Shown piece after piece: positions 2,369 through 23,072 of a stretch of 42,892 bases of DNA. Each line of letters begins with the position of its first letter. Position 1 is the stretch's first letter. Under the pieces are notes generated by a model. It did not search any database. It saw only the letters and a list, made by a program, of their open reading frames with translations, and was not told the origin of the DNA. The DNA is from an uncultured Thermodesulfobacteriota bacterium (GTDB lineage: Bacteria; Desulfobacterota; B13-G15; RBG-16-54-18), in NCBI GenBank assembly GCA_964565525.1, contig CAZMFG010000002.1, forward strand, positions 1 to 42,892, given 5' to 3'. The translations under genes and the position numbers were made by a program.

Positions 2369-2437
2369 TGATCAGTAAGACCTTACGTGCCTTGGGTCCT
2401 GGCGTTTCCGTCAACTCACAAGGGGAAAGCCGTCTGT

Positions 2438-3856
2438 TTAATCCTTGCTCGTCAGATACTGGTGGATTGCCTGGGACGAGTTTCTCCCCGCCCCCATGGC
2501 CAGGATTACCGTAGCCGATCCGGTTACGATGTCGCCGCCGGCGTAGACCCCCTCACGCGAGGTCTTGCCCGTCTCGGCGTCAGCCACGATATACCCCCAC
2601 TTGTTCAACTCCAGATTGGGGATGGTACCGGTGATGATGGGATTGGCGCCGGTGCCGATGGCGACGACCACCAGGTCCACGTCCAGGGTAAAATTGGAGC
2701 CCTCGATGGGTACCGGCCTCCTGCGGCCGGAGTCATCGGGTTCCCCCAACTCCATCTGGATGCATTCCATACCCACGACCCATCCCTCGTCGTTCCCGAT
2801 ATAGCGCAACGGGGCGGTCAGGAACCGAAACTGGACCCCTTCCTCTTCGGCATGGTGGACCTCTTCGGCCCGGGCCGGCAGTTCCGTCTTGGAGCGGCGG
2901 TAGACGATATGGACGTTGTCCGCCCCCAGCCGCAGGGCGGTGCGCGCCGAGTCCATGGCTACATTGCCGCCCCCGATCACCGCCACATTTTTGCCGAGGG
3001 CAATGGGGGTATCATATTTCGGGAAGAGATAGGCCTTCATGAGATTGGAACGGGTCAGATATTCATTGGCCGAATAGATCCCACAGAGGTTTTCGCCGGG
3101 GATGTTCATGAAGACGGGCAACCCCGCCCCCACCCCGAGGAAGACGGCGTCGTATCCCATCTCAAAGAGCTCATCCACGGTGAGGATTTTGCCGATGACG
3201 TGGTTGTACTTGATCTCTACTCCCAACCGTTTCAGATAATCCACCTCGGCCTCAACGATGGCCTTGGGGAGCCTGAATTCCGGTATCCCATAGACCAAGA
3301 CCCCCCCCGGCTTGTGGAGGGCCTCGAAGATGGTCACCTGATGGCCGTCCTTGATGAGGTCACCGGCCAGGGTGAGCCCTGCCGGCCCTGAACCTACGAC
3401 GGCCACCTTCCTCCCTGTCGGCGGCGGGAGTTGGGGCAGCCCTACTTCCCCCTGGGCCCTCTCGTAGTCTGCTGCAAAACGCTCCAGCCTCCCCACGGCC
3501 ACGGGCTCATCTTTCTTGCCCAGGACACAAAGGGCCTCGCACTGTGCTTCCTGAGGGCATACCCTCCCGCAGACGGCAGGGAGGCTGTTATCCTCCTTCA
3601 GTTTTTTGGCCGCTGCGATGAAGTCGCCCTCGGCGATCAGGTTGATAAATTCGGGAATCTTTACCCCCACCGGGCACCCCTCTATACACTTGGGCTTCTT
3701 ACATTGCAGACACCGGTTTGCCTCTTTTTGAGCGAGCTCAGGGGTGTATCCGTAAGGGACCTCGTCGAAGTTCCTGCTCCTCTTTTTGGGATCTTGCTCA
3801 GGCATCGGTTGCCTGGGTATCTTTTCTTTCTTCTCTTTCTTTTCTTTCTCGGCCAT
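2438..3856 (-). CDS. nfnB: GltD/SudA/NfnB-family NADPH-dependent oxidoreductase (glutamate synthase small-subunit-like; probable NADH-dependent reduced ferredoxin:NADP oxidoreductase subunit B)
   Basis: 472 aa. It has N-terminal Cys clusters CLQCKKPKCIEGCPV and CGRVCPQEAQCEALC, and two dinucleotide-binding motifs VAVVGSGPAGL and VAVIGGGNVAMD. It lies directly downstream of an NfnA/PyrK-like gene. Confidence 0.8.
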   Translation of the reverse strand: MAEKEKKEKKEKIPRQPMPEQDPKKRSRNFDEVPYGYTPELAQKEANRCLQCKKPKCIEGCPVGVKIPEFINLIAEGDFIAAAKKLKEDNSLPAVCGRVCPQEAQCEALCVLGKKDEPVAVGRLERFAADYERAQGEVGLPQLPPPTGRKVAVVGSGPAGLTLAGDLIKDGHQVTIFEALHKPGGVLVYGIPEFRLPKAIVEAEVDYLKRLGVEIKYNHVIGKILTVDELFEMGYDAVFLGVGAGLPVFMNIPGENLCGIYSANEYLTRSNLMKAYLFPKYDTPIALGKNVAVIGGGNVAMDSARTALRLGADNVHIVYRRSKTELPARAEEVHHAEEEGVQFRFLTAPLRYIGNDEGWVVGMECIQMELGEPDDSGRRRPVPIEGSNFTLDVDLVVVAIGTGANPIITGTIPNLELNKWGYIVADAETGKTSREGVYAGGDIVTGSATVILAMGAGRNSSQAIHQYLTSKD

Positions 3857-3868
3857 GGTTGTCCCTTT

Positions 3869-4705
3869 CTATTGCCCCTGTTCTTTTTGAAAGAGGTCAT
3901 ACGATCTGCGTTCTTCTTTGAGATAGGCAGCCTGGCGTTTGGTCAATTCGTCGAAGTCGACCTCGTGTCCGTCGAATTCCGGGCCATCGACACAGCAGAA
4001 TCGCGTCTTTCCACCCACCGAGACCCGGCAGGCGCCGCACATCCCCGTGGCGTCCACCATGATGGCGTTGAGGCTCACCAAGGTCTTTACACCGTACGGC
4101 TGGGTGGTCTTACAGACGAATTTCATCATGGGGACCGGCCCAATACCCACCACCAGCTTGACGTCCTTTTTCGCATCGAGCAGGTCCTTGAGGGCATCGG
4201 TGACAAATCCGTGTCTTCCATAGGAGCCGTCGTCGGTGGTAATCAGGAGTTCATCGCTCGCGTTCTTCATATAATCCTCCATGATCAGGAGGTCTTTGGT
4301 CCTGGCCCCGATAATGGAAATGACGTGGTTGCCGATATCCTTGAGGCCCTTGGTGATGGGGTATAACACGGCGATCCCCGTTCCGCCTCCCACGCAAATG
4401 ACCGTGCCCAGTTTCTCCAAGTGGGTCGGCCTTCCCAGGGGGCCGATGATATCGAGGATGGTGCCTCCTACCTGAAAGGTGCGCAGCATGGCCGTCGTTT
4501 TCCCCACTACCTGGAAGATGATATCGATGGTTCCCCCCTCAGGATCGATGCCGGCCATGGTGAGAGGTATCCTCTCCCCCGTCTCATTTGGCCTGAGCAC
4601 CACAAACTGCCCTGGTTGGGCCTTTGCGGCGATCAGGGGGGCCTCGATCTTGAAGTGACAAACGGTATTTCCCGCCATTTCTCGTTTTTCCACTATCTTA
4701 AACAA
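3869..4705 (-). CDS. nfnA: PyrK/SudB/NfnA-family FAD/NAD-binding iron-sulfur protein (probable Nfn subunit A)
   Basis: 278 aa. The TTG start at 4705 is preceded by GGAGGG at 6-nt spacing. It has a ferredoxin-reductase-like fold and a C-terminal [2Fe-2S] motif GMCGACRV...FCCVDGPEF. Confidence 0.8.
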   Translation of the reverse strand: MFKIVEKREMAGNTVCHFKIEAPLIAAKAQPGQFVVLRPNETGERIPLTMAGIDPEGGTIDIIFQVVGKTTAMLRTFQVGGTILDIIGPLGRPTHLEKLGTVICVGGGTGIAVLYPITKGLKDIGNHVISIIGARTKDLLIMEDYMKNASDELLITTDDGSYGRHGFVTDALKDLLDAKKDVKLVVGIGPVPMMKFVCKTTQPYGVKTLVSLNAIMVDATGMCGACRVSVGGKTRFCCVDGPEFDGHEVDFDELTKRQAAYLKEERRSYDLFQKEQGQ

Positions 4706-5799: not shown

Positions 5800-6963
5800 A
5801 TGATACCCCTTAAAAACATCAGGAGGATTTTTGCCAAGGCCTCTCAGCAGCCTGCCTATGCCTTACGAGCGGCCCGAATGCGGTTCTTATCCTCCTTGAG
5901 CTATCGCCTTCTCGATGGGAGGAGCGCCCCCCCTGAGACCATCTCCCTGCTGCTTACCTATCAATGTAATCTGCATTGCAAGATGTGCGGGCAGTGGGGG
6001 GAGCGGGGGAGCTTAAAAGATCTCCCCTCTGCCGTCACGAGGAGATATCTGGAGCTTCCGTTGATTGAGAGCCTTATCGAAGAAGTGAAGTCCTTTCACC
6101 CCACCATGACCCTTTTTGGTGGGGAGCCCCTGCTCCACCCACAATGGGGTGAGGTCGTCAAACTGATCAAGGGGGCCGGACTTCGCTGCAACATGATCAG
6201 CAACGGCATCCTGCTCAAGAAGAAGGCCGAGGAGGCGGTGCAACTGGGACTGGATGAGATCATCTTCTCCCTGGATGGTCCTGCCGGGGTGCACGATGCC
6301 ATCCGGGGGGGGAAGGGGGTCTTCCGCAGGGCTTTGGAGGGTTTCCAGCACCTCCAGACAGTGAAGGAGAGATATGGCAAAAAGAGGCCCGCGGTGAACG
6401 TCAACACGGTCATCTGGGAGGAGAACCACACGATGTTGGGTGATATCGTTGAGGAGGCGGCCCGGTTCGGGGCCCAGACCATCACCTTTCATCACCTCAT
6501 CTTCCTCGACCAGGCGGCCTTCAGGGAGACAGAGGCCATCACACAGGCGGCCCTCGCCTGCAATTCACCTGATTGGGGAGGGTTCGTCAGAGACGAGCTC
6601 CCTGGGATAGACCCGGAGCACATCATCGAGCAGAGGCGCACGATTGAACGGGGGAGGAACGCAATACCGGCCTTTTTTTATCCCAACTTCACCGATGAGG
6701 AGATCAGGGCGTACTATAGTTCTTTTGATTTTCTTCCCACCTCGTATAAGCGGAGGTGTCTGAGTCCTTGGATGGTGGCCTATGTGCTGCCGGATGGGAC
6801 AGTCAAGCCCTGCCTCAGCCTGGGGTATGTGATGGGAAACCTGCAAGAAGCCGGTTTTCAGGAGATATGGAACGGAGATCGGGCAATGCGGTTTCGCCGT
6901 CTCCTCAAAGAGAGGGGTTATTTTCCTGTCTGTCCCCGGTGCACGGAGTTTTGTAGGTTTTAA
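5800..6963 (+). CDS. radical SAM/SPASM-domain protein (rSAM-1)
   Basis: 387 aa with the CX3CX2C motif in LLLTYQCNLHCKMCGQWG and a GGEPLL SAM-binding segment. The Cys-rich C-terminus (RRCLSPW...VKPCLS...FPVCPRCTEFC) is typical of SPASM/twitch auxiliary cluster domains. Confidence 0.8.
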   Translation: MIPLKNIRRIFAKASQQPAYALRAARMRFLSSLSYRLLDGRSAPPETISLLLTYQCNLHCKMCGQWGERGSLKDLPSAVTRRYLELPLIESLIEEVKSFHPTMTLFGGEPLLHPQWGEVVKLIKGAGLRCNMISNGILLKKKAEEAVQLGLDEIIFSLDGPAGVHDAIRGGKGVFRRALEGFQHLQTVKERYGKKRPAVNVNTVIWEENHTMLGDIVEEAARFGAQTITFHHLIFLDQAAFRETEAITQAALACNSPDWGGFVRDELPGIDPEHIIEQRRTIERGRNAIPAFFYPNFTDEEIRAYYSSFDFLPTSYKRRCLSPWMVAYVLPDGTVKPCLSLGYVMGNLQEAGFQEIWNGDRAMRFRRLLKERGYFPVCPRCTEFCRF

Positions 6964-7041
6964 CGGTGGTCTCGAAGTTGAGTGGTTGTTGCGTGTATGA
7001 GCTTGTCTATCGCCGATTCCACCTTACGGTGCAGTAAAAAT

Positions 7042-7203
7042 CTAGGAAGGACGAATAAGGGAACAATTACGCCAACCCTGTCGGCAATGGTTGCCAGCTG
7101 GGCCATCCATGTGCTGTTGCTTACACACCTGGAGCACTGCCTCCTCCGGCCTCCCTTTGACCAACACTACCAACTTGGGCTTTGTCCAGACCTTGGTTTT
7201 CAT
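7042..7203 (-). CDS. RiPP precursor peptide A1, 53 aa: MKTKVWTKPKLVVLVKGRPEEAVLQVCKQQHMDGPAGNHCRQGWRNCSLIRPS
   Basis: Translated by hand (ATG = rc of cat at 7201-7203; TAG = rc of cta at 7042-7044). The SD GGAGG lies 9 nt upstream. The 28-aa N-terminus is 26/28 identical to the second copy, and almost all nucleotide differences are synonymous in this frame. It was not in the ORF track (under 60 aa). Confidence 0.7.
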   Translation of the reverse strand: MKTKVWTKPKLVVLVKGRPEEAVLQVCKQQHMDGPAGNHCRQGWRNCSLIRPS

Positions 7204-7293
7204 CTTTTAGTGCCTCCGTGTTTTTAAGGCCTTAATCGCAACTTGTACGCCATCCAAACTATTACTTTATATCTGCATCAGATTACATGTTAC

Positions 7294-7302
7294 AGTATAT
7301 CA
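7294..7302 (-). promoter_or_regulatory. candidate extended -10 promoter element (TGaTATACT) for precursor A1
   Basis: The minus strand reads gatgTGATATACT. The identical 13-mer is conserved upstream of precursor A2 (9982-9994). It lies about 90 nt upstream of the ATG. Confidence 0.35.
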
Positions 7303-7463
7303 CATCTTTGTCATAGGGGGTAAGCAGTTTTTTGGTCATGGATGTTTACAGCAGTAACCCCCCTGCTAAAAAGCTTATGGCGGCTATCACTATATGGTAT
7401 ATATATGTGTCTGATCTTGCGTTCCTCAAAACGGTATTGTGCAGTACCGTCCGGCTACAGTGC

Positions 7464-8600
7464 TCATCCGTTCTGTCTGGGCATTAAGAGGGACAATAAA
7501 ATATCTTTTACGTCCTCGGTTTTATGTGGACGATACAGTTTGTCGGCCCAGTGTAACCGATTCATCAGCTCTTGACCTACCTCATGTCCTAACAATTGTT
7601 CCTTGTATGTCGAGAAAGAAAAATCTTTGTCCTTGAGCGCATGCATGATTGAGTTGGCTGCCACGTGACCGTACCCTAAGCTAAAGGATATCCCTTCACC
7701 CCACAAGGGATCAATTCCCGCGGCATCACCTACCAAGAGCACCCTGTTGGCTGAAAATATTGATGAGGGATGAAACCACCGTAGCTGACAGCCCTCAACC
7801 TGACTTTGATCTAGTGAAATACCCCGTGTGGCTAAAAACTCCCCAAGGATATTCCTGAGGAGAGGGATTTCCTTCCGAGAGGTGGAGAAACCACCGACGC
7901 CTATGTTCAGCCATGCTTGACCATGGAGTACCACCGGGAAGGACCAGGCATAGCCTCGAATCCCATGCCGGAATGCACACGAGAAGTCTATTTTTGCTTC
8001 CAACCTTCTTTGATCAGAAAGGTTAAAACTGTCGGCGCGCGTCATAAAACGCAGCGTCATACACGTGTTCCTTGGCCCCCGTATCCCTGCGTTTCTGCAC
8101 AGCATTCTGCGTATGATGCTTTGCGCACCATCGGCACCTACTAGGACGCGGGTAGTAAGGCTTCGCTTGGGAGTTTGTACGGCAACTGCTTCATCACGGT
8201 AAGAAAAGGAGGTCACCGGCTCGTTCTGAACAACTGAGATGCCCAGATCCAGTGCCATGTGAACTAACGCCTCATCGAATTCTTCTCGTATTACCGTCCG
8301 TAATCCGCCAATATCAAAGCAATATTCTACATAGTTATCATAATCAAAGACGAAGCACGTTCTTTTAAGCGCTAAGGAGGTTATAGTCATTGTGATGCCA
8401 AGACGCTGTAACCAGTAATCAGCATATACACTAATTCCGCCCCCACAGATCTTCTTTCGGGGGTGGGTTTTCTTCTCCAGGACTATCAGTCGATTTTTCA
8501 TTGGCGGCAGGAGCTTGCTCAGGTGTATGGCCGTCGAGATACCGGCAGGTCCTGAACCCACTACAATGACGTCATATTCAGTCTCTCTTGATCTGCCCAT
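7464..8600 (-). CDS. FAD-dependent oxidoreductase, geranylgeranyl reductase family
   Basis: 378 aa with the FAD motif YDVIVVGSGPAGISTA. The HPRKKICGGGIS and LLVGDAAGIDPLWGEGISFSLGYG segments match the pattern I associate with GGR/ChlP/BchP-type prenyl reductases. Confidence 0.75.
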   Translation of the reverse strand: MGRSRETEYDVIVVGSGPAGISTAIHLSKLLPPMKNRLIVLEKKTHPRKKICGGGISVYADYWLQRLGITMTITSLALKRTCFVFDYDNYVEYCFDIGGLRTVIREEFDEALVHMALDLGISVVQNEPVTSFSYRDEAVAVQTPKRSLTTRVLVGADGAQSIIRRMLCRNAGIRGPRNTCMTLRFMTRADSFNLSDQRRLEAKIDFSCAFRHGIRGYAWSFPVVLHGQAWLNIGVGGFSTSRKEIPLLRNILGEFLATRGISLDQSQVEGCQLRWFHPSSIFSANRVLLVGDAAGIDPLWGEGISFSLGYGHVAANSIMHALKDKDFSFSTYKEQLLGHEVGQELMNRLHWADKLYRPHKTEDVKDILLSLLMPRQNG

Positions 8601-8660: not shown

Positions 8661-9530
8661 CTAGGCCCTGTATGTTAAAGCGTATTGCAGGCCGATATGC
8701 TGTATGTCCTTTGAGGATATTTCATCTTCGATAAGGGAGAGGTTGACAGAGACAAAAGCAGTCTTGTATGACTGGCTCAGAATATAATTTAAGGTTTGCA
8801 CGTGGCTGTAAGCTAGGCTGAGCCGGCGGTTGTCCAGGAGGCGAATAAATCTGGTAGGGCTTCGCGGATGAAAATAAAATACACGCCCTCCATTACCCTG
8901 AAAGGAGATGTGCAAAAGGTTGCATTCCTTAATTAATTCCTGTGCGGCATCTCGAAGTTTGAGCTTGGCCATGAGTGTAGGACTATCGAGGTCCCGGCGA
9001 TCAAGGCAAGGATATATTTCTACGCCGGTTCTCCCGTCAAAATACAAATCAATCCCAAATACAAATTCCTCATGGACCAGGTAATCGCGGATGCCTTCAA
9101 GGGGAGGGTGTAAAGAGATGACCTGATCTACCTTTTCAGGGTATTCCCTGACCATGAGATAACACTTGACCTTCGAATCACTCATGTCCGCTTTATAATC
9201 CAGACCTACGCCGATCGCTATGACCCTTAATACATCGAGGTCATTGTTGACTATTTGACCCAGAATGTCACGGTTCAACAATACGTTTTTACACCCTGCG
9301 ATCTTGTTCAAGAGATCATATATTGCATGAAGGCCGCTTTGAATATCGCTTTGCTCATACCCAAACCTGAGCCTCGAGGCATGGGTGCCTTCGCAGGAGA
9401 TCTTGACTGAGCATTCCAACAGAGAACAAGGGGTTGTGGATAGTACTTCCTCAAAGAGTCGAAGAAATGAATGCTCTTTTAACCCGAACCCCTTCTTGTG
9501 GAAAGTATACACCTGAATTAATGGATTCAT
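8661..9530 (-). CDS. hypothetical protein with ABBA-fold prenyltransferase-like strand motifs (function is inferred)
   Basis: 289-aa ORF of clear coding quality. It has recurrent short beta-strand-like motifs with aromatic or basic residues: RLRFGYE, VIAIGVGLDY, KVKCYLMV, FVFGIDLYFD, GVEIYPCL, GRVFYFHP, FVSVNLSL and IGLQYAL. These are reminiscent of NphB/CloQ or cyanobactin LynF/TruF/PatF-type prenyltransferases. Its size fits that family, and its neighbour is a prenyl-reductase-family gene. Confidence that it is a real CDS is about 0.85; confidence in the function is about 0.35. Confidence 0.5.
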   Translation of the reverse strand: MNPLIQVYTFHKKGFGLKEHSFLRLFEEVLSTTPCSLLECSVKISCEGTHASRLRFGYEQSDIQSGLHAIYDLLNKIAGCKNVLLNRDILGQIVNNDLDVLRVIAIGVGLDYKADMSDSKVKCYLMVREYPEKVDQVISLHPPLEGIRDYLVHEEFVFGIDLYFDGRTGVEIYPCLDRRDLDSPTLMAKLKLRDAAQELIKECNLLHISFQGNGGRVFYFHPRSPTRFIRLLDNRRLSLAYSHVQTLNYILSQSYKTAFVSVNLSLIEDEISSKDIQHIGLQYALTYRA

Positions 9531-9732
9531 ACGCTGATTATCGTTGCCGTTCGATTATGGTGTTTATGACAGTTGAATTTTTTACCAAGGTCACCATGCT
9601 GTCAATTGCGACGTGTATCATGGAGATAGAGAAATGAAGCCTTCATCTAGTGGTATCTAGAGCACGAGATGAGCGGGTTTGTTGCTGAGTTGATGCGCTT
9701 GTCTATTCCAGGTCTCAACTCACGCAAAAAAA

Positions 9733-9894
9733 TCAGGTAGGAATCACCCGTTGACAAGCGGAACTATAGATCGTACAGTTGTTGACATTTGGACCGCTTC
9801 TGCCCGATGTCTTACACACCTGGAGTACTGCTTCCTCCGGCCTACCCTTAAACAATACTATCAACTTCGGTTTTGTCCAGACTTTGGTCTTCAT
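9733..9894 (-). CDS. RiPP precursor peptide A2, 53 aa: MKTKVWTKPKLIVLFKGRPEEAVLQVCKTSGRSGPNVNNCTIYSSACQRVIPT
   Basis: Translated by hand (ATG = rc of cat at 9892-9894; TGA = rc of tca at 9733-9735). The SD GGAGGG lies 7 nt upstream. It has the same length as A1, the same leader, and Cys at the same positions (27, 40, 47). It was not in the ORF track. Confidence 0.7.
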   Translation of the reverse strand: MKTKVWTKPKLIVLFKGRPEEAVLQVCKTSGRSGPNVNNCTIYSSACQRVIPT

Positions 9895-9981
9895 TTTTAC
9901 GCCCTCCACGTTTTTAACGTTATAAATGCCACAAATGCGCCATCAGAACTCTTATGTATAGCTGCACTGATTAACATATAG

Positions 9982-9990
9982 AGTATATCA
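9982..9990 (-). promoter_or_regulatory. candidate extended -10 promoter element (TGaTATACT) for precursor A2
   Basis: The minus strand reads gatgTGATATACT, identical to the element upstream of A1, and lies about 90 nt upstream of the ATG. Confidence 0.35.
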
Positions 9991-10078
9991 CATCCTCCTC
10001 TCCGACATAAGCAATTCTTTTTCACGGCGCCAAGACTGTTTGAGGTCTCATGGTATCCCTTTTAATCATAACTCCACG

Positions 10079-11221
10079 TTAGAGTTCCAAAGGCAGTAAA
10101 GGGGCTCTCGTTGTCTTAAGGGCTTTAGCCCTCGCGTGGGCAACCTGGCAGAAATAGGTTACCGGTGCATCCAATTCCCCGGTCTCAAGCGAGGCATGGG
10201 CAGGGCACCACATACAGAGGTTGATCAGGGGGCATACTTGACACGTCTCTAGAAAATCGGATCTCTCCGATCGCATAGCCCGTACCTGGGGGACAAAGTT
10301 CCGCCAGGCATCGGTGAGGGTTCCTTGTTTCAGGTCATAGACACAATCGGGGTGCCAGAGGGATGGGCAGAGCCGGAAGAGGCCGTCATAGCTGAGGCTG
10401 AAACTTGCGGTCCCCGCACCGCACCGCACGAGATGGTTCGAGGTAGTATGCGATAGCTGAGGAACGATTAAGGTATCGCACTCTTTTTCCAGGGCCTGAA
10501 ACCGCTCAGGGTCCGATTGCTCCAGGGCCACGATCTCTTCGGGAGAGAGCCTTTCGGCCTTTATCTCCGCATTTCTTGTCGGGTCCCCGTCATATCTCAG
10601 ATGTAAAAAGGGGTCAAAGCGGAAGCAGTCTTTTACTCTCTCTCTGCAGAAGCGGGCAATCGCCAGCTGTTCGTGGAGATTGGTGCGAAGGGCCATGGCC
10701 TTGAGGCGTACGTTAAGGCCGTTTCCGAGGAGTAGATCGAGCCCTCGACGAAAGGCTGCAAAGGAGCCTGCCTTGCGAGTAACCCTCTCATAGGATTCTT
10801 TGCTGACTCCATAGACCGAAACCTCGATATCCCTCGGTGGATATTCCTTGAATAATTTGATATGCGCTTTTGTTATCAATGTGGCATTGGTAAAGACCGA
10901 GATCAGAAGCCCCTTTTTTTTGAGTGAGAGATAGATATCAAAAAAATCCTCTCGCAGGAGGGGTTCACCTCCGGTGATGAGGCACCACAAGGCGCCAAGG
11001 GATACGGCCTCATTTACAATCTCTTTTATATCCTCACATGAGAGTTCCCTTTTTTTGACCTCCTTATCCCCAGCCGGAAGATTGATGTAACAGTGACGAC
11101 AGTGGTTGTTGCACCGGGCGGTGATCTCCAGGTCAAAAGAGATCAGCCCCCTTCTTTTTCTCATCTTTTCCCAGAGGGGGAGATCGTGTAAGTCGGCGGA
11201 TGAAACATAGGATTCACGCAC
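10079..11221 (-). CDS. radical SAM/SPASM-domain peptide-modifying enzyme (rSAM-2)
   Basis: 380 aa with CX3CX2C in EITARCNNHCRHCYINLP and a GGEPLL segment. It has a C-terminal SPASM-like Cys array (RCGAG...LCPS...CVYD...CQVCPLINLCMWCPAH...FCQ). It is a paralogue of rSAM-3, and its start overlaps the peptidase stop by 8 nt. Confidence 0.85.
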   Translation of the reverse strand: MRESYVSSADLHDLPLWEKMRKRRGLISFDLEITARCNNHCRHCYINLPAGDKEVKKRELSCEDIKEIVNEAVSLGALWCLITGGEPLLREDFFDIYLSLKKKGLLISVFTNATLITKAHIKLFKEYPPRDIEVSVYGVSKESYERVTRKAGSFAAFRRGLDLLLGNGLNVRLKAMALRTNLHEQLAIARFCRERVKDCFRFDPFLHLRYDGDPTRNAEIKAERLSPEEIVALEQSDPERFQALEKECDTLIVPQLSHTTSNHLVRCGAGTASFSLSYDGLFRLCPSLWHPDCVYDLKQGTLTDAWRNFVPQVRAMRSERSDFLETCQVCPLINLCMWCPAHASLETGELDAPVTYFCQVAHARAKALKTTRAPLLPLEL

Positions 11222-11774
11222 CGGGCCGCCTCCTTATTATTATGAAGCGGGCAAACCTCCAGATGGGGCCTAGCAAGGGTAAGAGCCTCCAACGGGTCAA
11301 GAAGGCTATGATAAAACGATCTGGGCCGAGGCCGAAAGGGGGCTCCTCCCCGTTTCTCTCTACTTTGATAACACGCCCGAGGATGTTTGCCTTGGCGATA
11401 AACCCATCAGCCTCTGGGATATTATCCCCTTTGGTGAGGTAAGCATCCGCCCTTTTTCCGACTACCCGGTGGATGATGAGCTTGCAGGTACTCGGATGGG
11501 TGAAGACCACCACATCACCGAAACGGGGGTCAGCTCCCTGCACAGGGGCAATAGTGAGGACATCGCCATCCTTGATAAAGGGGGACATGCTAAAACCCTT
11601 GCACCGAAACCTGAAGGACGCCCCCTTGTCAAGCACGCCCCTCATGAGTTCCTCAAGGTGTTGGCTGTAAAGAGATAACTCCTCCCTCTTCTTGACAAAG
11701 AGGGCTGGCTTAACTTGCATGTCAGGTGAGGTGACCATTAAAGCAGGTTTTATATCACTTCTTTGAGGCTTCAA
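11214..11774 (-). CDS. S24/S26-family serine peptidase (signal peptidase I / SipW-like motifs), candidate leader peptidase
   Basis: 186 aa with a KGFSMSPFIKDGDVL box (Ser nucleophile), a KLIIHRVVGK box (His/Lys general base) and a YLTKGDNIPEADG box. The C-terminal segment FIIAFLTRWRLLPLLGPIW is hydrophobic. It overlaps the PqqD gene by 20 nt. Confidence 0.7.
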   Translation of the reverse strand: MKPQRSDIKPALMVTSPDMQVKPALFVKKREELSLYSQHLEELMRGVLDKGASFRFRCKGFSMSPFIKDGDVLTIAPVQGADPRFGDVVVFTHPSTCKLIIHRVVGKRADAYLTKGDNIPEADGFIAKANILGRVIKVERNGEEPPFGLGPDRFIIAFLTRWRLLPLLGPIWRFARFIIIRRRPGA

Positions 11775-12066
11775 CGATCATCTTCCTCTTGAGGAGTTCT
11801 TTTGCAAGGCCGATCACATCCCGCTCGATCTCGCCGTCCGGTGCCTCATACTCCGTAGCGAGTTCCTCAGCCACCGCCTTCAAGCTCTTTGTGCCGTCCA
11901 GTTTTTCCCACATGGCCCTGCCAGTCTCATTTAGGGTAAAGAGTTCGTCCTCCATATCCCCCATGCCGGCAACAAGGGGGACGATGATGAGTTCTCCCTC
12001 AATCTCCCTGCATACCAGGTCCTCCGATGGGACGTAGGCGGCGTCAAATTTGACCTTTGAGTCCAT
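11755..12066 (-). CDS. PqqD-family peptide chaperone (RiPP recognition element protein)
   Basis: 103 aa. The pattern ...VCREIEGELIIVPL...FTLNETGRAMWEKLDGTKSLKAVAEELATEYEAP...ERDVIGLAKELLKRKMI is typical of stand-alone PqqD/RRE proteins. It is flanked by rSAM/SPASM genes. Confidence 0.8.
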   Translation of the reverse strand: MDSKVKFDAAYVPSEDLVCREIEGELIIVPLVAGMGDMEDELFTLNETGRAMWEKLDGTKSLKAVAEELATEYEAPDGEIERDVIGLAKELLKRKMIVEASKK

Positions 12067-13288
12067 TACAGACCTCCTTTGTGTGGCGAGTGAAGTGAGT
12101 TGTGGCGATAAAAATTTGTATCCTTTCTTTCCAGTTCCTTATCTGCCAGGCCTGCTCGCCTTCTTCAAGCAGCCCCAAGACCCGTGCCTGCGCATGGGCG
12201 ACCTCGCAGAGGTAGTCAACCGGTGTGTCCAAGGTCCCGTGCTCCATCCACGACCAGGCCGGGCACTGTTCGCAGAGGCCCTTCAGAAAGCAGTTGGCAC
12301 AGCGGGTGAGGTAATCACGGTTTTTGGCTTTCCTCTGCCTTATTCTTGGAAAGAAATTCGTCATGGCATCTTTGAGTGAGCCTTTTTTTAGATCATAAAC
12401 GGTGTCTGGGTGCCTCAGCAACATGCATGGTTGGAGATAACCGTAGGCATCGACACATCCGCTCCTCACCCCTGCGCCGCAGGAGAAGATGTTTGTCCCC
12501 GATGGCCTGGCAAACATAGAACAGAATTCCCGCATCTCTTTCAGGTATTTCTCTTGCCTCCTGGAAAAGAATGTTATTACATCCTCAGGTGAGGGTCTGA
12601 GCCCCTTGATAAGGATGTTCTTTTTGCTCGAGTCCCGGCGTGCGCGAAGATCGAGTAAAAGGGTATAAGAGGGTGCTGTGTCCATCCAGGGGATGGTGGA
12701 GGCCCACGATTCAAATTCCTCTATTTCTTCTTTGTTAGGTGGGAGAAGCGCACCCGTGACCACAAACGGGACCTGATATTCTAATAACAAATGCGTACCG
12801 CTCCACGCGGCTTCAAAAGAACCCGCGATTCTAGTGATTGCCTCATAGGAGTTCCTCGTCATTCCGTAGAGGGTAATTTCGATAGGCATGAGGGGTGGGG
12901 TGCGCCCAAATACCTTGGCCAGCGTTGGTGTAATCAATGTGGCGTTGGTGCAGATCGTCACCCGCAGGCCGAGCCTGCGGGCAAAGATATAGAGGTCTTC
13001 AAAATCTTCCCTCAAGAGGGGTTCCCCCCCTGTGAACCTTACTGTGAGACAGCCGAGGGAAAGGGCCTCTTGGAGGATCTCCTGTATCTCTCCTGTCGAC
13101 AGTTCCCTTTTTTGGGCATGACGATCGTCCGCAGGGAGATTTATATAACAGTGGATACAGTTGTTGTTGCAGCGTTCGGTGAGCTCCATGTCGAGTGAGT
13201 TAAGAGCAGTGGTATTCCCCTTCCCGACGGAGACCCCATCGTCCTTTATCTTTACTACAATATAAGAATCTTTAATGACCATCCTCAC
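12044..13288 (-). CDS. radical SAM/SPASM-domain peptide-modifying enzyme (rSAM-3)
   Basis: 414 aa with CX3CX2C in ELTERCNNNCIHCYINLP and a GGEPLL segment. It has a SPASM-like array (SCGAG...CVDAYGYLQPC...RCANCFLKGLCEQCPAW...LCE). The start codon is uncertain (GTG at 13288 or ATG at 13282). Confidence 0.85.
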   Translation of the reverse strand: MRMVIKDSYIVVKIKDDGVSVGKGNTTALNSLDMELTERCNNNCIHCYINLPADDRHAQKRELSTGEIQEILQEALSLGCLTVRFTGGEPLLREDFEDLYIFARRLGLRVTICTNATLITPTLAKVFGRTPPLMPIEITLYGMTRNSYEAITRIAGSFEAAWSGTHLLLEYQVPFVVTGALLPPNKEEIEEFESWASTIPWMDTAPSYTLLLDLRARRDSSKKNILIKGLRPSPEDVITFFSRRQEKYLKEMREFCSMFARPSGTNIFSCGAGVRSGCVDAYGYLQPCMLLRHPDTVYDLKKGSLKDAMTNFFPRIRQRKAKNRDYLTRCANCFLKGLCEQCPAWSWMEHGTLDTPVDYLCEVAHAQARVLGLLEEGEQAWQIRNWKERIQIFIATTHFTRHTKEVCNGLKGQI

Positions 13289-13336: not shown

Positions 13337-14317
13337 TCAAAGGTGCCTTAAGAGGTCTGTTACCCCTCCATCTTTATTAAAGTGAAGGGTATAGCAGGGA
13401 ACTTCATGAGCCATCGTATTCATTAATGCAAGCATTTTCTCCCACCACTCGGCTGTAACCAAAGGTTTTATCAGACAAGCCAAGAGGATCTTGATGATAT
13501 CCTGCGTGTGGTCCATATGGATGAGTTGGTTTCCCCGGTCCTGTTTCAGAAAAAGAATGGCCTTCAACGGCGCGGAATCTGCCGAAACATCAGGAATATC
13601 GCCATGACTCCAGGTCCCGTGGATCTTGAAACCCTCCGGCCACCTTCTTACAATCATCCGGTCATCGCACAGAATCTTTGCCTTACCCTGCATCATCATC
13701 ACCATGGTGGATTTGCCCGCATTGGAATGTCCCACGAAAAGGAGTCCTTTGCCGTCAAGCACTACGCCGCTTGCATGGATATAACACCCTCCCCGTTCAG
13801 CCAGAAGTTGGGCGAGGATGACCTGATCAGTTGGAAAGAGGGTGAGGGAAGGGATATTGCCCCTGTGGAAAGGCCTCTCAGTTTTATTATATATCTTGAC
13901 CGTTCTACGGTTCATTATCGCCAGTTGGTGGATATCCCTTTCTTGAACAAGGCGTGGACGCGTGAAACTTCCCCCATTTGTTTTCTTACGAGATCTTGGA
14001 TAGAGGCGGCGCCATAGTCGTTTAATCGGTTCCCATGTGCCCCCCGGGACAACCACGTAGATCCAGCAAGGCCCCTTTCTGTAAATGACCCACGGGGGCC
14101 TCCGATAGACCTCGTCAGCCATATCCAAGCTGGTCAGAGGTGGTAGGGAGAAGTGGTGCCTGATGGTTATGGTATCCTTTCCAGGTCTATCCACTTCAAA
14201 GAGTCTGAACTTGGGGTGGAAGGTCGTATCGGTGATGGGTAAGTCCGATACCATCTTTATAGTGATACCGGCAATGTGATAATAGCGGCGGTCTAAGACC
14301 CGGGGTTTTTCAGTCAT
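13337..14317 (-). CDS. HPr kinase/phosphorylase-related P-loop kinase (HprK C-terminal-domain-like)
   Basis: 326 aa. The segment IHASGVVLDGKGLLFVGHSNAGKSTMV...ILCDDRMIV matches the HprK catalytic-domain pattern (hG..v..kGvLl.G.SG.GKS....L..DD). Confidence 0.7.
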   Translation of the reverse strand: MTEKPRVLDRRYYHIAGITIKMVSDLPITDTTFHPKFRLFEVDRPGKDTITIRHHFSLPPLTSLDMADEVYRRPPWVIYRKGPCWIYVVVPGGTWEPIKRLWRRLYPRSRKKTNGGSFTRPRLVQERDIHQLAIMNRRTVKIYNKTERPFHRGNIPSLTLFPTDQVILAQLLAERGGCYIHASGVVLDGKGLLFVGHSNAGKSTMVMMMQGKAKILCDDRMIVRRWPEGFKIHGTWSHGDIPDVSADSAPLKAILFLKQDRGNQLIHMDHTQDIIKILLACLIKPLVTAEWWEKMLALMNTMAHEVPCYTLHFNKDGGVTDLLRHL

Positions 14318-14469: not shown

Positions 14470-15300
14470 TCACATAAAGGTGTCCCTCAGGAGCTTTATA
14501 CACTTCCACAGCCTATCGCCGATGACGCTGAAGGAAAAACCCTTAGGGAAGAATATCTCCTGTAGGGCTTTTCCTTTATGTTTTGACTGAAAGAGAAAAA
14601 GAAGGTCACCGAAATTTTGATTGAACGTTCCCCCCTTTATTTTTTTCAGAATCCATCGTTCTCCAATGGAGAGATTCCCTTTCCAGGATGGGAAAATATC
14701 CGGGTACAGGAAGCTGAGATAGACAAGGGTGTGCTCAGCACCCATCCGTTTTGCCTCGGCGCGTATCGCTTCATCAGAGAGCTGATAGTATTTTTGTATC
14801 CTGGTCAGATCTTTCCACCCCTTCTCAGATCCGAAAGAGTGGCTCTGGAGGTGGATGACCGTGGAGATAAAGAGGTGCTCCGGGCAAGGGATCTTTATCT
14901 CTAGTGCGTCTAATTGCTTGGTGATGCCTTGTTGAAAGACCTCATCCATAGAGACCGTCAGGCAAGCGTTCGCCAGGGCTGTGCGGATAGGGGTGAGGAA
15001 GGAGGTGTGCAGGTCGAGGGAGAGGCCGTTCCTATAGAAGACCCCCGGTTCCGCCTCCTGCCATTTCAATTCCCGTAAGACCCCTTTGAGCTGTTCCACC
15101 TCCCGTTCCCGGACCATGATGTCCACATCGAGCATCCCCCGATCCCCCAGCTCGGGGTAAACATCTCCCAGAAGGCTTATTCCTCTGAAGAAGATAACCT
15201 CAGGGCCCGTCTTTTGTAGCCGTTCCGTCACCTCCCGCAGGTGGTGGATGAGGATGAGATTCTGGGAGGCCGTTTGGTAAAAGGTGAGTTCCCGCTTCAT
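14470..15300 (-). CDS. nucleotidyltransferase family protein (PF14907/NTP_transf_5-like)
   Basis: The ORF track gives 14470-15351. I prefer the ATG at 15300 (MKRELTFYQ...), which forms an ATGA overlap with the upstream glycosyltransferase stop. Motifs are GMLDVDIMV and LSLDLHTSF. Confidence 0.6.
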   Translation of the reverse strand: MKRELTFYQTASQNLILIHHLREVTERLQKTGPEVIFFRGISLLGDVYPELGDRGMLDVDIMVREREVEQLKGVLRELKWQEAEPGVFYRNGLSLDLHTSFLTPIRTALANACLTVSMDEVFQQGITKQLDALEIKIPCPEHLFISTVIHLQSHSFGSEKGWKDLTRIQKYYQLSDEAIRAEAKRMGAEHTLVYLSFLYPDIFPSWKGNLSIGERWILKKIKGGTFNQNFGDLLFLFQSKHKGKALQEIFFPKGFSFSVIGDRLWKCIKLLRDTFM

Positions 15301-18515: not shown

Positions 18516-19123
18516 GGCAAGAAGTAACGGAGGGGTGCAAAACCTTCGGCAAAGGTCACCCTGGCCTGGGTGCCCCGGAAGCGGGCCGTCGCGATGGCGA
18601 TGTCAACGATATTGGAGCCGGGGATGTTGGTCTTATGAAATTGAGATGTGTGGGCCTCCAGGCATTTGATCTTTTCCTCCAACGTCTCGCCGATGTCTGC
18701 GAATAACAGGGGATTGAAGCCGATGGACGTCGGGGTCTCATAGAAGATGACCTTGGGCGTATACCGGGAAGCGGAGATGGTAGCCTTGGCGAGACGCTCG
18801 TGGTCCTGATGGGTATCCTCGGGATAGTTCACCAAGATCAAAGAGGGTTTTATATCCCGCATAAATCCCTCCAATAGGTCTATCAAGGGCTTGTCGAAGA
18901 TGATGAGGGTGTCTTTGTATCCCCCCCAGAATAGTTCTTTAGACCCCAGTATCTCGGCGGCCACCTCTTGTTCCCGCTGTCTCACCTGTGGATCTCCGCC
19001 CATGCCTCCATCAGCGACTACTAAGAGATAAATTTCATCCCCTTTGTTTCTGTATTGGGCGAGCGTGCCGGAACACCCAAATTCGATATCGTCGGGGTGG
19101 GCCCCGATGGCTAATACTTTCAT
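18512..19123 (-). CDS. PIG-L/LmbE-family N-acetylglucosaminyl deacetylase
   Basis: 203 aa with the N-terminal MKVLAIGAHPDDIEFGCSGT motif. ATGA overlaps occur at both ends. Confidence 0.85.
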   Translation of the reverse strand: MKVLAIGAHPDDIEFGCSGTLAQYRNKGDEIYLLVVADGGMGGDPQVRQREQEVAAEILGSKELFWGGYKDTLIIFDKPLIDLLEGFMRDIKPSLILVNYPEDTHQDHERLAKATISASRYTPKVIFYETPTSIGFNPLLFADIGETLEEKIKCLEAHTSQFHKTNIPGSNIVDIAIATARFRGTQARVTFAEGFAPLRYFLP

Positions 19124-23065: not shown

Positions 23066-23072
23066 GGATGTG

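Follow-up and report, generated by a model that had tools for sequence, protein, structure and literature searches.

A probable RiPP precursor from a widespread, uncharacterised peptide family, encoded beside radical SAM/SPASM, PqqD and kinase-fold genes in a Thermodesulfobacteriota genome

Systems that combine radical SAM (rSAM)/SPASM enzymes with PqqD-family proteins are an already known kind of RiPP machinery. In the pathways to PQQ (PqqA/PqqD/PqqE) and mycofactocin (MftA/MftB/MftC), a stand-alone PqqD-type chaperone recognises a short peptide by its N-terminal leader and hands it to an rSAM/SPASM enzyme; for PqqA, the chaperone that binds this leader is PqqD (PMC10906245). The cores in these pathways are invariant, and each pathway yields one cofactor. 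Sactipeptides and ranthipeptides (SCIFF, PapB, AlbA, StsB) join Cys-containing cores to rSAM/SPASM enzymes and leader recognition by an RRE, and thioether formation is the most common chemistry for such pairs of Cys core and enzyme. The SynChlorMet cassette (Scm; TIGR04248-TIGR04251: ScmD, ScmC, ScmE, ScmF) unites a ScmC-type protein related to HprK, a member of the PqqD family and a pair of paralogous PqqE-like rSAM/SPASM enzymes; we know of no precursor named in its description, and our literature search found no paper on it. In the lasso systems of the paeninodin and pseudomycoidin type, the kinases PadeK, ThcoK and PsmK share a His-Lys-Asp-Asp motif and act on linear precursor peptides, whose conserved C-terminal Ser they phosphorylate, and PsmN adds a hexose to the phosphate (PMC9266682). 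Peptide prenylation by the PatF-type fold is known from cyanobactins and, outside them, from lanthipeptides (MppC; PMC12715784).

The locus compared here with these systems lies in a window of 42,892 nucleotides, the whole stretch of DNA that was analysed, and its features are collected in Table 1. The original prediction placed a 53-aa minus-strand peptide gene, A1, under an 81-aa plus-strand ORF that it took for a shadow, and proposed the peptide as a RiPP precursor for the adjoining genes. Translation confirmed the minus-strand ORF, with its GGAGG upstream of the ATG, and gave the product MKTKVWTKPKLVVLVKGRPEEAVLQVCKQQHMDGPAGNHCRQGWRNCSLIRPS, followed by a stop. The description of this gene as hidden is limited to the ORF track from which the prediction was made, because A1 is already called by the IMG pipelines: the exact protein is present in public gene calls (JGI/IMG), its homolog at NCBI is MBN1255273.1, and the ORF listing that we made shows both frames. 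The reading frame is kept across 20 orthologs. In the 20 unique orthologous leader DNAs, the variable sites at codon positions 1, 2 and 3 numbered 13, 8 and 26 (each of 28), and the pairwise nucleotide differences were 824, 565 and 2173, respectively. Synonymous codon changes exceeded non-synonymous ones in the peptide frame only; in every other frame, non-synonymous changes equalled or exceeded synonymous changes. This comparison of orthologous DNA indicates that the minus-strand ORF is a real gene.

Table 1. Features of the peptide locus, with coordinates in the window and the evidence for each
Feature	Coordinates	Strand	Basis
Third, distinct rSAM/SPASM enzyme (rSAM3, 387 aa), convergent with A1	5800-6963	+	Pfam Radical_SAM and SPASM
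Plus-strand shadow ORF, 81 aa, not a gene	6982-7227	+	stops in homologs; product without public match
Conserved 3' element (C)GATAGACAAGCTCAT, ~30 nt past A1 stop	6997-7012	-	sequence comparison
Precursor peptide gene A1 (53 aa)	7042-7203	-	translation, codon-position test, family alignment, exact IMG call
Shine-Dalgarno GGAGG, 9-nt spacer to A1 ATG at 7203	7213-7217	-	sequence; conserved in orthologs
TGATATACT, extended -10-like box, 99 nt upstream of A1 ATG	7294-7302	-	consensus match only
Geranylgeranyl-reductase-family flavoenzyme (378 aa)	7464-8600	-	TIGR02032, motifs
LynF/TruF/PatF-family (cyanobactin-type ABBA) peptide prenyltransferase homolog (289 aa)	8661-9530	-	PF19156, PDB matches
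Twin of (C)GATAGACAAGCTCAT element, past A2	9693-9708	-	sequence comparison
Precursor peptide gene A2 (53 aa), A1 paralog	9733-9894	-	translation, alignment
Shine-Dalgarno GGAGG, 8 nt before A2 ATG	9903-9907	-	sequence
TGATATACT, extended -10-like box upstream of A2	9982-9990	-	consensus match only
rSAM/SPASM-type enzyme 2 (rSAM2, 380 aa)	10079-11221	-	Pfam, motifs, synteny
S24/S26 peptidase, ER/archaeal signal-peptidase-I type	11214-11774	-	TIGR02228 58.9 bits vs cutoff 51.85
Discrete PqqD-family protein (103 aa)	11755-12066	-	Pfam PqqD 55.1 bits vs GA 23.4
rSAM/SPASM-type enzyme 1 (rSAM1, 414 aa)	12044-13288	-	Pfam Radical_SAM, Cys motifs
ScmC-like protein (326 aa), PEPCK/HprK-type P-loop kinase fold	13337-14317	-	PF27840 in homologs, AF2 and Foldseek
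NTP_transf_5 nucleotidyltransferase-fold protein	14470-15351	-	PF14907 81.5 bits

A1 consists of a leader of about residues 1-28, which ends in the invariant pair C27-K28, and a core of about residues 29-53, which ends in C47-x5-S53. A second precursor, A2, is encoded on the same strand, its ATG nested in a longer GTG-start ORF that reaches 9909; a hmmsearch of the window gave A1 and A2 alone and no third copy. The near identity of the N-terminal 28 residues in the two copies had been predicted and is borne out (26/28 identical, the exceptions being V12I and V15F), with about nine synonymous and two conservative codon changes between the leaders. The cores differ at 19 of 25 positions and share the other six (G34, P35, N38, C40, C47 and P52), and because C40 and C47 are among the shared residues, the Cys positions are kept. 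The predicted hypervariable core with retained Cys therefore holds between the paralogs, where the Cys residues are in register, but not between orthologs, whose cores are recognisably conserved in other MAGs. Ratios of synonymous to non-synonymous changes in ortholog pairs were 6:1, 8:2 and 5:0 for the leader and 7:6, 1:8 and 2:8 for the core, a pattern indicating purifying selection on the leader and relaxed selection on the core. Together with the alignments, these ratios give A1 and A2 the conserved leader and variable core of RiPP precursors. The leader (about 28 aa) follows the pattern W-x-K-P-K-L-x-V-L-x-K-G-R-P-E-E-A-V-L-x-x-C-K. Many loci of the family hold two or three different precursors. 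The second precursor is left uncalled in the versions of related loci from Logan, ENA and JGI.

As expected of RiPP precursors, each precursor gene is a short ORF with its own ribosome-binding site beside genes for predicted modifying enzymes, and every ortholog keeps a GGAG(G) Shine-Dalgarno sequence at a distance of 8-10 nt from the start. A TGnTATAAT/TATACT box occurs at -75 to -100 in most orthologs, and the -10-like box upstream of A1 is a putative promoter of its own. Both genes are followed by the conserved 3' element. A hairpin around this element was considered and rejected, as RNAalifold gave no structure, and a hand-drawn 8-bp stem (70% paired, with zero compensatory changes) was no better than shuffles. 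A scan for terminators after the precursor genes yielded weak candidates only, and an Rfam scan of 5-16 kb at E<=1 returned nothing.

The ends of the peptides are strongly constrained. The last residue is Ser or Thr in 55 of 58 unique locus peptides and in 135 of 141 library representatives (~95% of cores), and the last Cys stands exactly six residues before the end in 50 of 59 locus and 122 of 140 library peptides (~85%); the highest count at any one last-Cys spacing in shuffled sequences was 14. C-x5-[S/T]-COOH is a newly found hallmark of the peptide family.

This family is large. We found 20 close homologs, and the peptide profile retrieved 2,250 clusters at 50% identity (E<=1e-3). Genome loci with the peptide numbered 52 and came from bacterial phyla as well as methanogens, the hosts being Thermodesulfobacteriota, Acidobacteriota, Chloroflexota, Omnitrophota, Thermoleophilia and Verrucomicrobiota, as well as Chlorobiaceae, Methanospirillum and Methanoregulaceae. 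The co-occurrence of the peptide with rSAM/SPASM and PqqD genes, which the original prediction proposed to check, was found in most loci: a homologous rSAM is encoded in 45 of the 52, PqqD in 39, an ScmC-like protein in 39 and the S24 peptidase in 34, and the full cassette (ScmC-like protein, PqqD, ER-type signal-peptidase homolog and rSAM/SPASM) in 31, most of the misses being short or truncated contigs. Three loci of 12-20 kb (L037, L044 and L046) hold a family peptide without the cassette in the DNA retrieved. The peptide thus accompanies an RRE (PqqD) and tailoring enzymes in unrelated taxa, as RiPP precursors do. No peptide family was matched by 22 close members in Pfam and NCBIfam scans at E<=10, in which the weak matches (FcpB, PGM_PMM_IV and similar) were noise. 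Family members are labelled "hypothetical protein" in NCBI and IMG, and our literature search found no paper on the family. On the evidence of these profiles and gene neighbourhoods, A1 and A2 belong to a large, widespread and uncharacterised family of peptides that are probably enzyme-modified.

All three kinds of neighbour named in the original prediction (rSAM/SPASM, PqqD and peptidase genes) are present. rSAM1 carries CNNNCIHC and a C-terminal CX2CX5CX2C motif, and it is conserved beside the peptide across phyla. rSAM3 is syntenic and 77-87% identical in most prenyltransferase-type loci (L001-L007, L009, L011 and L015). We considered whether rSAM3 corresponds to the rSAM that is fused to ScmC elsewhere and rejected this, since the fused domain is a paralog of rSAM1 and rSAM2 (30-33% identity) and only 21-25% identical to rSAM3. 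The NCBIfam matches of the rSAM enzymes are generic only (45-100 bits vs cutoffs of 265-850); none places the enzymes in a subfamily of defined function, so that thioether formation is conjecture. The PqqD-family protein is the presumed leader-binding RRE, and the S24/S26 peptidase, which has the boxes GFSMSP, IHRV and KGDN, is the presumed leader peptidase.

The ScmC-like protein has an extra N-terminal domain of ~170 aa, and the residues H181, K202, D218 and D219 are invariant. Its AF2 model (pLDDT 84) matched PEPCK (6e-8) and HprK/P (7e-5) in Foldseek, with modest TM-scores, and by sequence the match to HprK is weak (E 0.15). PEPCK-fold proteins are able to catalyse other phosphoryl transfers. 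An 88%-identical homolog carries PF27840 ScmC in precomputed annotation, as do 120 of 120 relatives among the matches listed, and relatives in the PF27840 ScmC family number 1,270 at E<=1e-10. A P-loop kinase fold with His-Lys-Asp-Asp is found here together with a precursor C-terminal Ser, as in the HprK-type RiPP kinases, and this fold and motif suggest that the ScmC-like protein is a kinase for the C-terminal Ser/Thr. The arrangement resembles that of the paeninodin and pseudomycoidin lasso systems (PadeK, ThcoK, SyanK, PsmK), in which an HprK-type His-Lys-Asp-Asp P-loop gene also lies beside precursors with a conserved final Ser, and in both this locus and the pseudomycoidin-type systems (PsmN) a nucleotidyltransferase-fold gene is nearby. 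Unlike the lasso systems, the cluster has no lasso cyclase or B protease, and its scaffold enzymes are rSAM/SPASM proteins; the ScmC-like protein, whose kinase role is predicted, further differs from the lasso-type kinases in its N-terminal domain and in its fusion to an rSAM in other phyla. The fusion suggests joint action of the two domains on the same site.

In gene content, the cassette has the SynChlorMet architecture of an HprK-like protein of the ScmC type, PqqD and two PqqE-like rSAM/SPASM paralogs, and its spread over taxa (deltaproteobacteria, Chlorobi and methanogens) is similar. However, the window proteins score far below the curated models (ScmC 39.4 vs 125, ScmD 19.4 vs 100, and ScmE 78.8 and ScmF 77.1 vs 400 bits), and the loci of Chlorobiaceae and Methanospirillum likewise fail them. 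We therefore rejected identity with SynChlorMet, the scores being four to five times under the cutoffs in the window, Chlorobiaceae and Methanospirillum alike, and regard the locus as a sister system and not as the curated cassette; it differs also in its added S26-type peptidase and in having an identified precursor family. The literature search returned nothing relevant on DUF5838, on the PEEAVL leader motif, or on HprK together with RiPP and SPASM.

The genes between A1 and A2, for a prenyltransferase homolog and a flavoenzyme, are present only in the Thermodesulfobacteriota clade to which the window belongs, and because the prenyltransferase-type loci all come from this one clade, core features specific to them are inseparable from shared ancestry. 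The prenyltransferase homolog (PF19156 97.7 bits vs GA 28.8; TIGR04445 119 bits, below the cutoff of 140) matched the PDB entries 8ye0, LimF, PirF and PagF at 1e-28 to 1e-19 and is a full-length homolog of the PatF superfamily, to which the cyanobactin prenyltransferases (PagF, PirF, LimF, LynF/TruF/PatF) belong. Unlike the cyanobactin pathway, the cluster (genes at 5.8-19.8 kb) has neither PatA/PatG subtilisin-type proteases nor a PatE-type precursor; its precursors belong to an unrelated family, the genome is a Thermodesulfobacteriota MAG, and the prenyltransferase gene occurs together with those for rSAM/SPASM enzymes and a GGR-type reductase. Our literature search found no paper on this combination of PatF-type prenyltransferase, rSAM/SPASM and GGR-type reductase. 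The flavoenzyme matches TIGR02032 over its full length at 132.1 bits, below the cutoff of 158.8, and has all five motifs listed for GGR (PMC10821996), namely GxGxxG, CGGG (Cys47), RxxFD, YxWxFP and LxGD; in its 14 locus homologs, CGGG, RxxFD and YxWxFP are present in 14 of 14 and LxGD in 13. PDB sequence matches are weak, the best being PltA (1e-8). A halogenase or monooxygenase is the less likely reading, as the GGR motifs are present and the halogenase motif WxWxIP is absent. The complete signature motifs and full-length match are shared with GGR, ChlP/BchP and MenJ, from which the enzyme differs in its sub-cutoff score and in its context, a peptide cluster instead of lipid, quinone or chlorophyll biosynthesis; in such a cluster, its substrate would be a prenylated peptide. 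A saturated lipid tail is probably also added by the cluster.

At the edge of the cluster, the NTP_transf_5 gene is syntenic in L001-L015, where in L012 and L014 it has moved downstream of the reductase gene (25-27% identity). Its product is a possible tailoring enzyme, and its membership in the cluster is uncertain. The upstream sugar genes (WecA, GT4, DegT, PIG-L and WbqC) are syntenic in related MAGs, and we left them out of the peptide cluster because they run on into a polysaccharide locus of the Wza/Wzc/Wzy type. Neither an exporter gene nor an immunity gene was seen among the cluster genes. The original prediction is silent on the prenyltransferase, the GGR-type reductase, the ScmC-like gene and the C-x5-[S/T]-COOH end.

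Other explanations of the locus differ in how far the evidence admits them. That the minus-strand ORF is a chance frame, with the plus-strand ORF, or nothing, as the true gene here, is exceedingly improbable and is already refuted by the codon-position test and the stops in homologs. The plus-strand ORF is longer, and in the window it is stop-free opposite both A1 and A2; however, the corresponding antisense frame carries stops in 15 of 20 homologs, the synonymous excess is confined to the peptide frame, and the 81-aa product has no match among 15 billion public proteins, in which A1 is present. The shadow status given to this ORF in the original prediction is thereby upheld. Very unlikely, too, is a precursor of a redox cofactor or housekeeping small molecule, made in the manner of PqqA/PQQ or MftA/mycofactocin and not a variable peptide product. 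The cluster does resemble those pathways in having a discrete PqqD-family protein beside PqqE-like rSAM/SPASM enzymes, many anaerobes, methanogens among them, encode the family, a transporter gene was not seen, and the leader pattern W-T-K-P-x-L-x-x-L-x-x-G-x-x-E resembles the N-terminus of PqqA (W-T-K-P-A-Y-T-D-L-R-I-G-F-E). Yet conservation is lowest in the segment from which the cofactor would be made: the paralogous cores differ at 19 of 25 positions, non-synonymous changes match or exceed synonymous ones between orthologs, and two or three different precursors occur at many loci, so that the core is variable and multi-copy where those of PQQ and mycofactocin are invariant. The Pfam PqqA model has no match, the window enzymes score below the cutoffs of the PqqE and MftC models, and the Glu-x3-Tyr pair that defines PqqA is impossible in A1, because A1 has no Tyr.

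It is quite unlikely that A1 is a precursor of the SCIFF-like, ranthipeptide or sactipeptide kind whose maturase is an rSAM of the SCIFF/PapB/AlbA type. As in those families, Cys residues stand in the core and rSAM/SPASM enzymes with a PqqD-type RRE adjoin; a thioether is the default expectation, and the StsB, PapB and AlbA models are among the generic rSAM matches. Unlike in those families, neither peptide nor enzymes have sequence membership: no SCIFF or other curated peptide model matches the 22 members at E<=10, and the maturase models score 48-78 bits vs cutoffs of 340-850 (PapB, NF047865, 47.7-53.1 vs 340; StsB 74.7-77.5 vs 625; AlbA 58 vs 850). The RRE here is a separate PqqD protein, the cassette adds the kinase-fold ScmC-like protein and an S26-type peptidase, and the C-x5-[S/T]-COOH hallmark is no SCIFF feature. 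The resemblance of the leader to sactipeptide, ranthipeptide and SCIFF leaders, suggested originally, is not supported, because the membership tests for SCIFF, sactipeptide, ranthipeptide, PqqA and SynChlorMet fail. A different chemistry for the same precursor, which we also hold to be unlikely, is that the kinase-fold protein phosphorylates the C-terminal Ser/Thr, which is then converted to Dha/Dhb, and that the Cys six residues upstream adds to it and closes a C-terminal lanthionine-like ring, while the rSAM enzymes do something else. This would follow the logic of class III/IV lanthipeptides, whose synthetases are established to phosphorylate and then eliminate; the spacing of C-x5-[S/T]-COOH is fixed in ~85% of members, and the kinase-fold protein is conserved alongside the peptide. 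Against it, searches of the cassette gave no homolog of a lyase or cyclase, other phyla have the ScmC-like domain fused to an rSAM, and the phosphate added by the known RiPP kinases of the HprK type stays attached to the peptide (PMC9266682).

The codon pattern, the contrasting selection on leader and core, the Shine-Dalgarno and promoter signals and the co-occurrence with modifying enzymes instead make it likely that A1 is a real RiPP precursor of the adjoining cassette, as originally predicted. The chemical steps that we infer for its pathway are each less certain than this. The leader would be bound by the small PqqD-family protein, which would offer the variable core of 25 aa to rSAM1 and rSAM2, the paralogous rSAM/SPASM pair; a convergent gene codes for a third SPASM enzyme. 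The SPASM enzymes would most likely cross-link C40 and C47 of the core, and perhaps the invariant C27. The invariant C-x5-[S/T]-COOH end, taken with the kinase-fold protein, predicts the site of chemistry: the ScmC-like protein would act on the C-terminal Ser/Thr, the likeliest reaction being ATP-dependent phosphorylation, by analogy with the HPr-kinase homologs that act on paeninodin-type precursors. The ER-type signal-peptidase homolog may then cut off the leader near C27-K28. For the window's Thermodesulfobacteriota clade alone, the gene content suggests that the PatF-type prenyltransferase would prenylate the core and that the GGR-type flavoenzyme would saturate the isoprenoid, giving a lipidated peptide.

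Tentatively, and as a possibility that we think doubtful in its full form, the family may be a new RiPP class, spread very widely among methanogens and anaerobic bacteria, in which a C-terminal C-x5-Ser/Thr module is modified jointly by a kinase-like protein and rSAM/SPASM enzymes, and to which the clade of the window adds a saturated isoprenoid. If this is true, the product could be a C-terminal macrocycle, phosphorylated or activated in some other way, of a kind unseen in characterised RiPPs, and a peptide with a saturated isoprenoid would be, to our knowledge, the first RiPP with a reduced prenyl lipid. The pair of prenyltransferase and prenyl reductase suggests a route to saturated-isoprenoid lipopeptides, which would be of interest to peptide engineers, and cyanobactin-type prenylation would be extended to anaerobic relatives of sulfate reducers. 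A1 and A2 stand for a large bacterial and archaeal precursor family for which we found no curated model, name or paper, and a profile for it would improve annotation, since gene callers miss some copies. With the substrate peptide identified, the whole cassette, including the widespread PF27840 ScmC family, becomes experimentally tractable.

Both the minus-strand 53-aa reading frame proposed as a precursor gene (A1) and the GGAGG sequence before its ATG were recovered as originally predicted, together with a paralog, A2, carrying a nearly identical leader. The first 28 residues of the two peptides differ only by V12I and V15F; the last 25, which form the variable core, share only G34, P35, N38, C40, C47 and P52, so that the Cys positions are indeed kept. 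No further family copy turned up in the window when all six frames were searched with a profile. A GGAG(G) box lies 8-10 nt 5' of the ATG in all orthologs. Most also carry a TGnTATAAT/TATACT box 75-100 nt upstream (window copies at 7302-7294 and 9990-9982), and this consensus match suggests that the precursor genes are each transcribed from an extended -10 promoter of their own. Downstream, about 30 nt 3' of the stop codon, both window genes (6997-7012 and 9693-9708, minus strand) and most orthologs, among them those in loci L001, L005, L009 and L011, carry a conserved element, (G)AATAGACAAGCGCAT, preceded by a T-run. A hairpin around this element was unsupported, with 70% pairing, zero compensatory changes and no RNAalifold structure.

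Between the A1 and A2 leader DNAs, about nine codon changes are synonymous and two are conservative replacements. The comparison set comprised 20 distinct leader DNAs, both orthologs and paralogs, drawn from the window and from loci of related MAGs. Codon positions 1, 2 and 3 of the peptide frame had 13, 8 and 26 variable sites (of 28) and 824, 565 and 2173 pairwise nucleotide differences. Synonymous changes exceeded non-synonymous ones (1662 vs 1083) in this frame only. The frame of the overlapping 81-aa plus-strand ORF (6982-7227), in contrast, is broken by stop codons in 15 of the 20 homologs, in keeping with its proposed status as a shadow ORF. Because the exact A1 and A2 proteins occur in public gene calls (JGI/IMG) and the plus-strand product is absent from all those searched, we conclude that A1 is a real gene that is not hidden from standard pipelines; one NCBI homolog is MBN1255273.1, a "hypothetical protein". 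Even so, the Logan, ENA and JGI versions of related loci lack a call for the second precursor. The suggestion that only the plus-strand ORF is listed also fails for the window, whose ORF list contains both frames. Comparison of orthologs showed strong purifying selection on the leader (synonymous to non-synonymous changes 6:1, 8:2 and 5:0), whereas selection on the core is relaxed (7:6, 1:8 and 2:8). A translated gene, A1 encodes a precursor made up of a leader and a core.

A profile built from A1 and A2 retrieved 20 close homologs of 53-59 aa, and when 1.84 billion representatives were searched exhaustively with hmmsearch, 2,250 clusters matched at E<=1e-3. Scanning a single genome for each species with a pattern yielded 52 loci in Thermodesulfobacteriota, Acidobacteriota, Chloroflexota, Omnitrophota, Thermoleophilia, Verrucomicrobiota, Bacteriovoracaceae and Chlorobiaceae, as well as in Methanospirillum and Methanoregulaceae. 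BLAST of the window proteins against the locus ORFs gave a common core cassette of a ScmC-like kinase-fold protein, rSAM1, peptide, PqqD, an S24 peptidase and rSAM2, the two rSAM proteins being paralogous radical SAM/SPASM enzymes. The expected co-occurrence was found for rSAM (45/52 loci) and PqqD (39/52); ScmC-like genes are present in 39/52, S24 in 34/52 and all four in 31/52, and the loci with an incomplete cassette are mostly short or truncated contigs. Thus, a conserved cassette travels with the precursor gene, which, with the codon pattern and the selection on leader and core, supports the reading of A1 as a RiPP precursor beside rSAM/SPASM, PqqD and peptidase genes. In L037 (peptides at 9932-10165 and 6315-6587), L044 and L046, no recognisable cassette gene lies within the 10-20 kb retrieved; these peptides may be orphans whose enzymes act in trans, or their cassette may fall below the BLAST threshold.

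Family members follow the consensus W-x-x-P-[EK]-L-x-[VI]-L-x-[RK]-x-x-P-E-E-A-V-L-x-x-C-K up to the core. The variable core behind it spans 17-48 aa and contains two Cys in 34 peptides and three in 21. The last residue is Ser or Thr in 55/58 unique locus peptides, against a background S+T frequency of 22%. The last Cys stands exactly 6 residues before the end in 50/59, whereas 2,000 shuffles never gave a count above 14 for one spacing. Independent top library representatives gave 135/141 and 122/140, respectively, and a C-x5-[S/T]-COOH end is a hallmark of the family. In addition, Asn precedes the first core Cys by two positions (N-x-C) in about 15/17 cores from the window and L001-L015, the loci with a prenyltransferase, where Trp or Tyr between the two core Cys is also usual. 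Both features are rare in the prenyltransferase-free loci among L016-L056. Because all prenyltransferase loci come from one clade, these features may reflect shared ancestry and not substrate recognition.

Features of the peptide cluster and the adjoining polysaccharide locus
Feature	Coordinates	Strand	Details
A1 precursor	7042-7203	minus	MKTKVWTKPKLVVLVKGRPEEAVLQVCKQQHMDGPAGNHCRQGWRNCSLIRPS*
A1 Shine-Dalgarno GGAGG	7217-7213	minus	9 bases 5' of ATG at 7203
A2 precursor	9733-9894	minus	MKTKVWTKPKLIVLFKGRPEEAVLQVCKTSGRSGPNVNNCTIYSSACQRVIPT*
A2 Shine-Dalgarno GGAGG		minus	8 bases 5' of start
Distinct rSAM/SPASM	5800-6963	plus	convergent with A1
GGR-family flavoenzyme	7464-8600	minus	TIGR02032 132 vs 158.8, whole model covered
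LynF/TruF/PatF-family prenyltransferase homolog	8661-9530	minus	PF19156 97.7 bits; TIGR04445 119 vs 140
rSAM2	10079-11221	minus	radical SAM
S24/S26 peptidase	11214-11774	minus	TIGR02228 (archaeal/ER-type signal peptidase I model) passed, 58.9 vs 51.85; GFSMSP, IHRV, KGDN boxes
PqqD	11755-12066	minus	Pfam 55 bits
rSAM1	12044-13288	minus	CNNNCIHC and C-terminal CX2CX5CX2C
ScmC-like	13337-14317	minus	invariant motifs, HprK alignment, AF2 model
NTP_transf_5	14470-15351	minus	PF14907
DegT, PIG-L, WbqC		minus	polysaccharide locus
Wza-like	22349-23065	plus	polysaccharide locus
Wzc-like	22824-25241	plus	polysaccharide locus
Wzy_C	25238-26590	plus	polysaccharide locus

The ScmC-like protein conserves H181, G196-H-S-x-A-G-K202-[ST]-T, D218-D219-R220 and H238-G239, and its P-loop segment can be aligned to HprK. 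Its AF2 model (pLDDT 84.3, pTM 0.81) matches ATP-dependent PEP carboxykinases (E 6e-8) and HprK/P (E 7e-5, target-normalised TM about 0.5). The HPr-kinase homologs PadeK, ThcoK, SyanK and PsmK, which have a His-Lys-Asp-Asp motif, phosphorylate lasso-peptide precursors on their conserved C-terminal Ser, and the nucleotidyltransferase-like PsmN subsequently attaches a hexose to the new phosphate group (PMC9266682). The parallel in fold, in the conserved last Ser/Thr and in the NTP_transf_5 gene of the window's clade leads us to infer that the ScmC-like protein may act on the C-terminal residue of the peptide. Beyond this clade, most ScmC-like domains form part of a 650-720 aa fusion protein with a third rSAM/SPASM, a paralog of rSAM1 and rSAM2 with 30-33% identity, which suggests that the kinase-fold and rSAM activities act on one peptide site. 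In L021, L023, L028, L035 (1518-3518) and L045, the kinase-fold domain sits at the rSAM/SPASM C-terminus.

The overlaps between neighbouring genes at 12044-12066, 11755-11774 and 11214-11221 suggest translational coupling. The prenyltransferase homolog matches 8ye0, LimF, PirF and PagF in the PDB at 1e-28 to 1e-19. The GGR (geranylgeranyl reductase)-family flavoenzyme has all the motifs listed for GGRs (PMC10821996), namely GxGxxG, CGGG, RxxFD, YxWxFP and LxGD, and a motif check of the protein found no halogenase motif. Both genes occur together only in the Thermodesulfobacteriota subclade L001-L015, in which the entire cluster and its housekeeping flanks are syntenic; the nearest relative, the MAG locus L005, has a reductase 97% and a prenyltransferase 92% identical. 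Between rSAM1 and PqqD, L001 carries an extra rSAM/SPASM (6973-7800) and L003 a class I methyltransferase (7014-7817), and the slot is empty in the window (about 12044-12066); therefore, tailoring differs between close relatives. No exporter gene was seen in the peptide cluster. WecA-type, GT4, DegT, PIG-L and WbqC genes lie upstream and run into a large Wza/Wzc/Wzy polysaccharide locus of EPS/O-antigen type (17463-26590 and beyond), which we treated as a neighbour and not as part of the cluster. Because related MAGs keep the WecA-type and GT4 genes (15297-17644) in synteny with the peptide cluster, a link between the sugar genes and the cluster is possible. A 578-aa protein with AAA_22 ATPase and HD_5/HD phosphohydrolase domains (20613-22349, plus), which may be a regulator, is encoded where the peptide/sugar genes and the polysaccharide export genes diverge. 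Elsewhere, two plus-strand ORFs with low-complexity translations (2387-3391, 334 aa; 3431-4366, 311 aa) lie opposite a gltD-like gene (2438-3856, minus) and a DHOD-B-type electron-transfer subunit (3869-4705, minus), and look like shadow ORFs.

The leader had been likened to those of sacti-/ranthipeptide, SCIFF-like peptides. This resemblance was not supported, since peptide and enzymes alike failed membership of the SCIFF, ranthipeptide and sactipeptide families; thioether chemistry is nevertheless plausible. The SynChlorMet cassette has the same architecture and shares the ScmC family at Pfam level through homologs of the window's ScmC-like protein, PF27840 being annotated for one that is 88% identical and for all 120 relatives listed, but all four of its NCBIfam equivalogs were missed three- to fivefold, the Chlorobiaceae and Methanospirillum loci included. 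By these comparisons, the window cluster is a sister system of SynChlorMet. The leader also has a likeness to PqqA, which we take to be at the motif level only, and the peptide might accordingly be read as a cofactor precursor. The PqqA HMM gave no match, A1 contains no Tyr, and the variable, multi-copy cores argue against a cofactor. PatF-fold prenylation outside cyanobactins is known in lanthipeptides (PMC12715784). Our literature search found no report in which it is combined with an rSAM/SPASM enzyme or with prenyl reduction by a partner enzyme, and nothing relevant on SynChlorMet, DUF5838, PEEAVL or HprK-type kinases combined with SPASM RiPPs.

We propose that PqqD would bind the leader, as it does that of PqqA (PMC10906245). 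The rSAM/SPASM enzymes would cross-link the core Cys, the ScmC-like protein would phosphorylate or activate the terminal Ser/Thr, and the ER-type signal-peptidase homolog would cleave near C27-K28. In the window's clade, the PatF-type enzyme would prenylate the core and the GGR-type enzyme saturate the chain.

Overall, these results place A1 in a large and as yet unnamed family of RiPP precursors. Its machinery is of a type already known, rSAM/SPASM enzymes with a PqqD chaperone, with hallmarks of its own and a predicted clade-specific lipidation module. Some of the gene combinations are surprising, although they bring no conceptual surprise; with its chemistry a prediction, the family offers a solid lead for RiPP discovery that is open to experiment.
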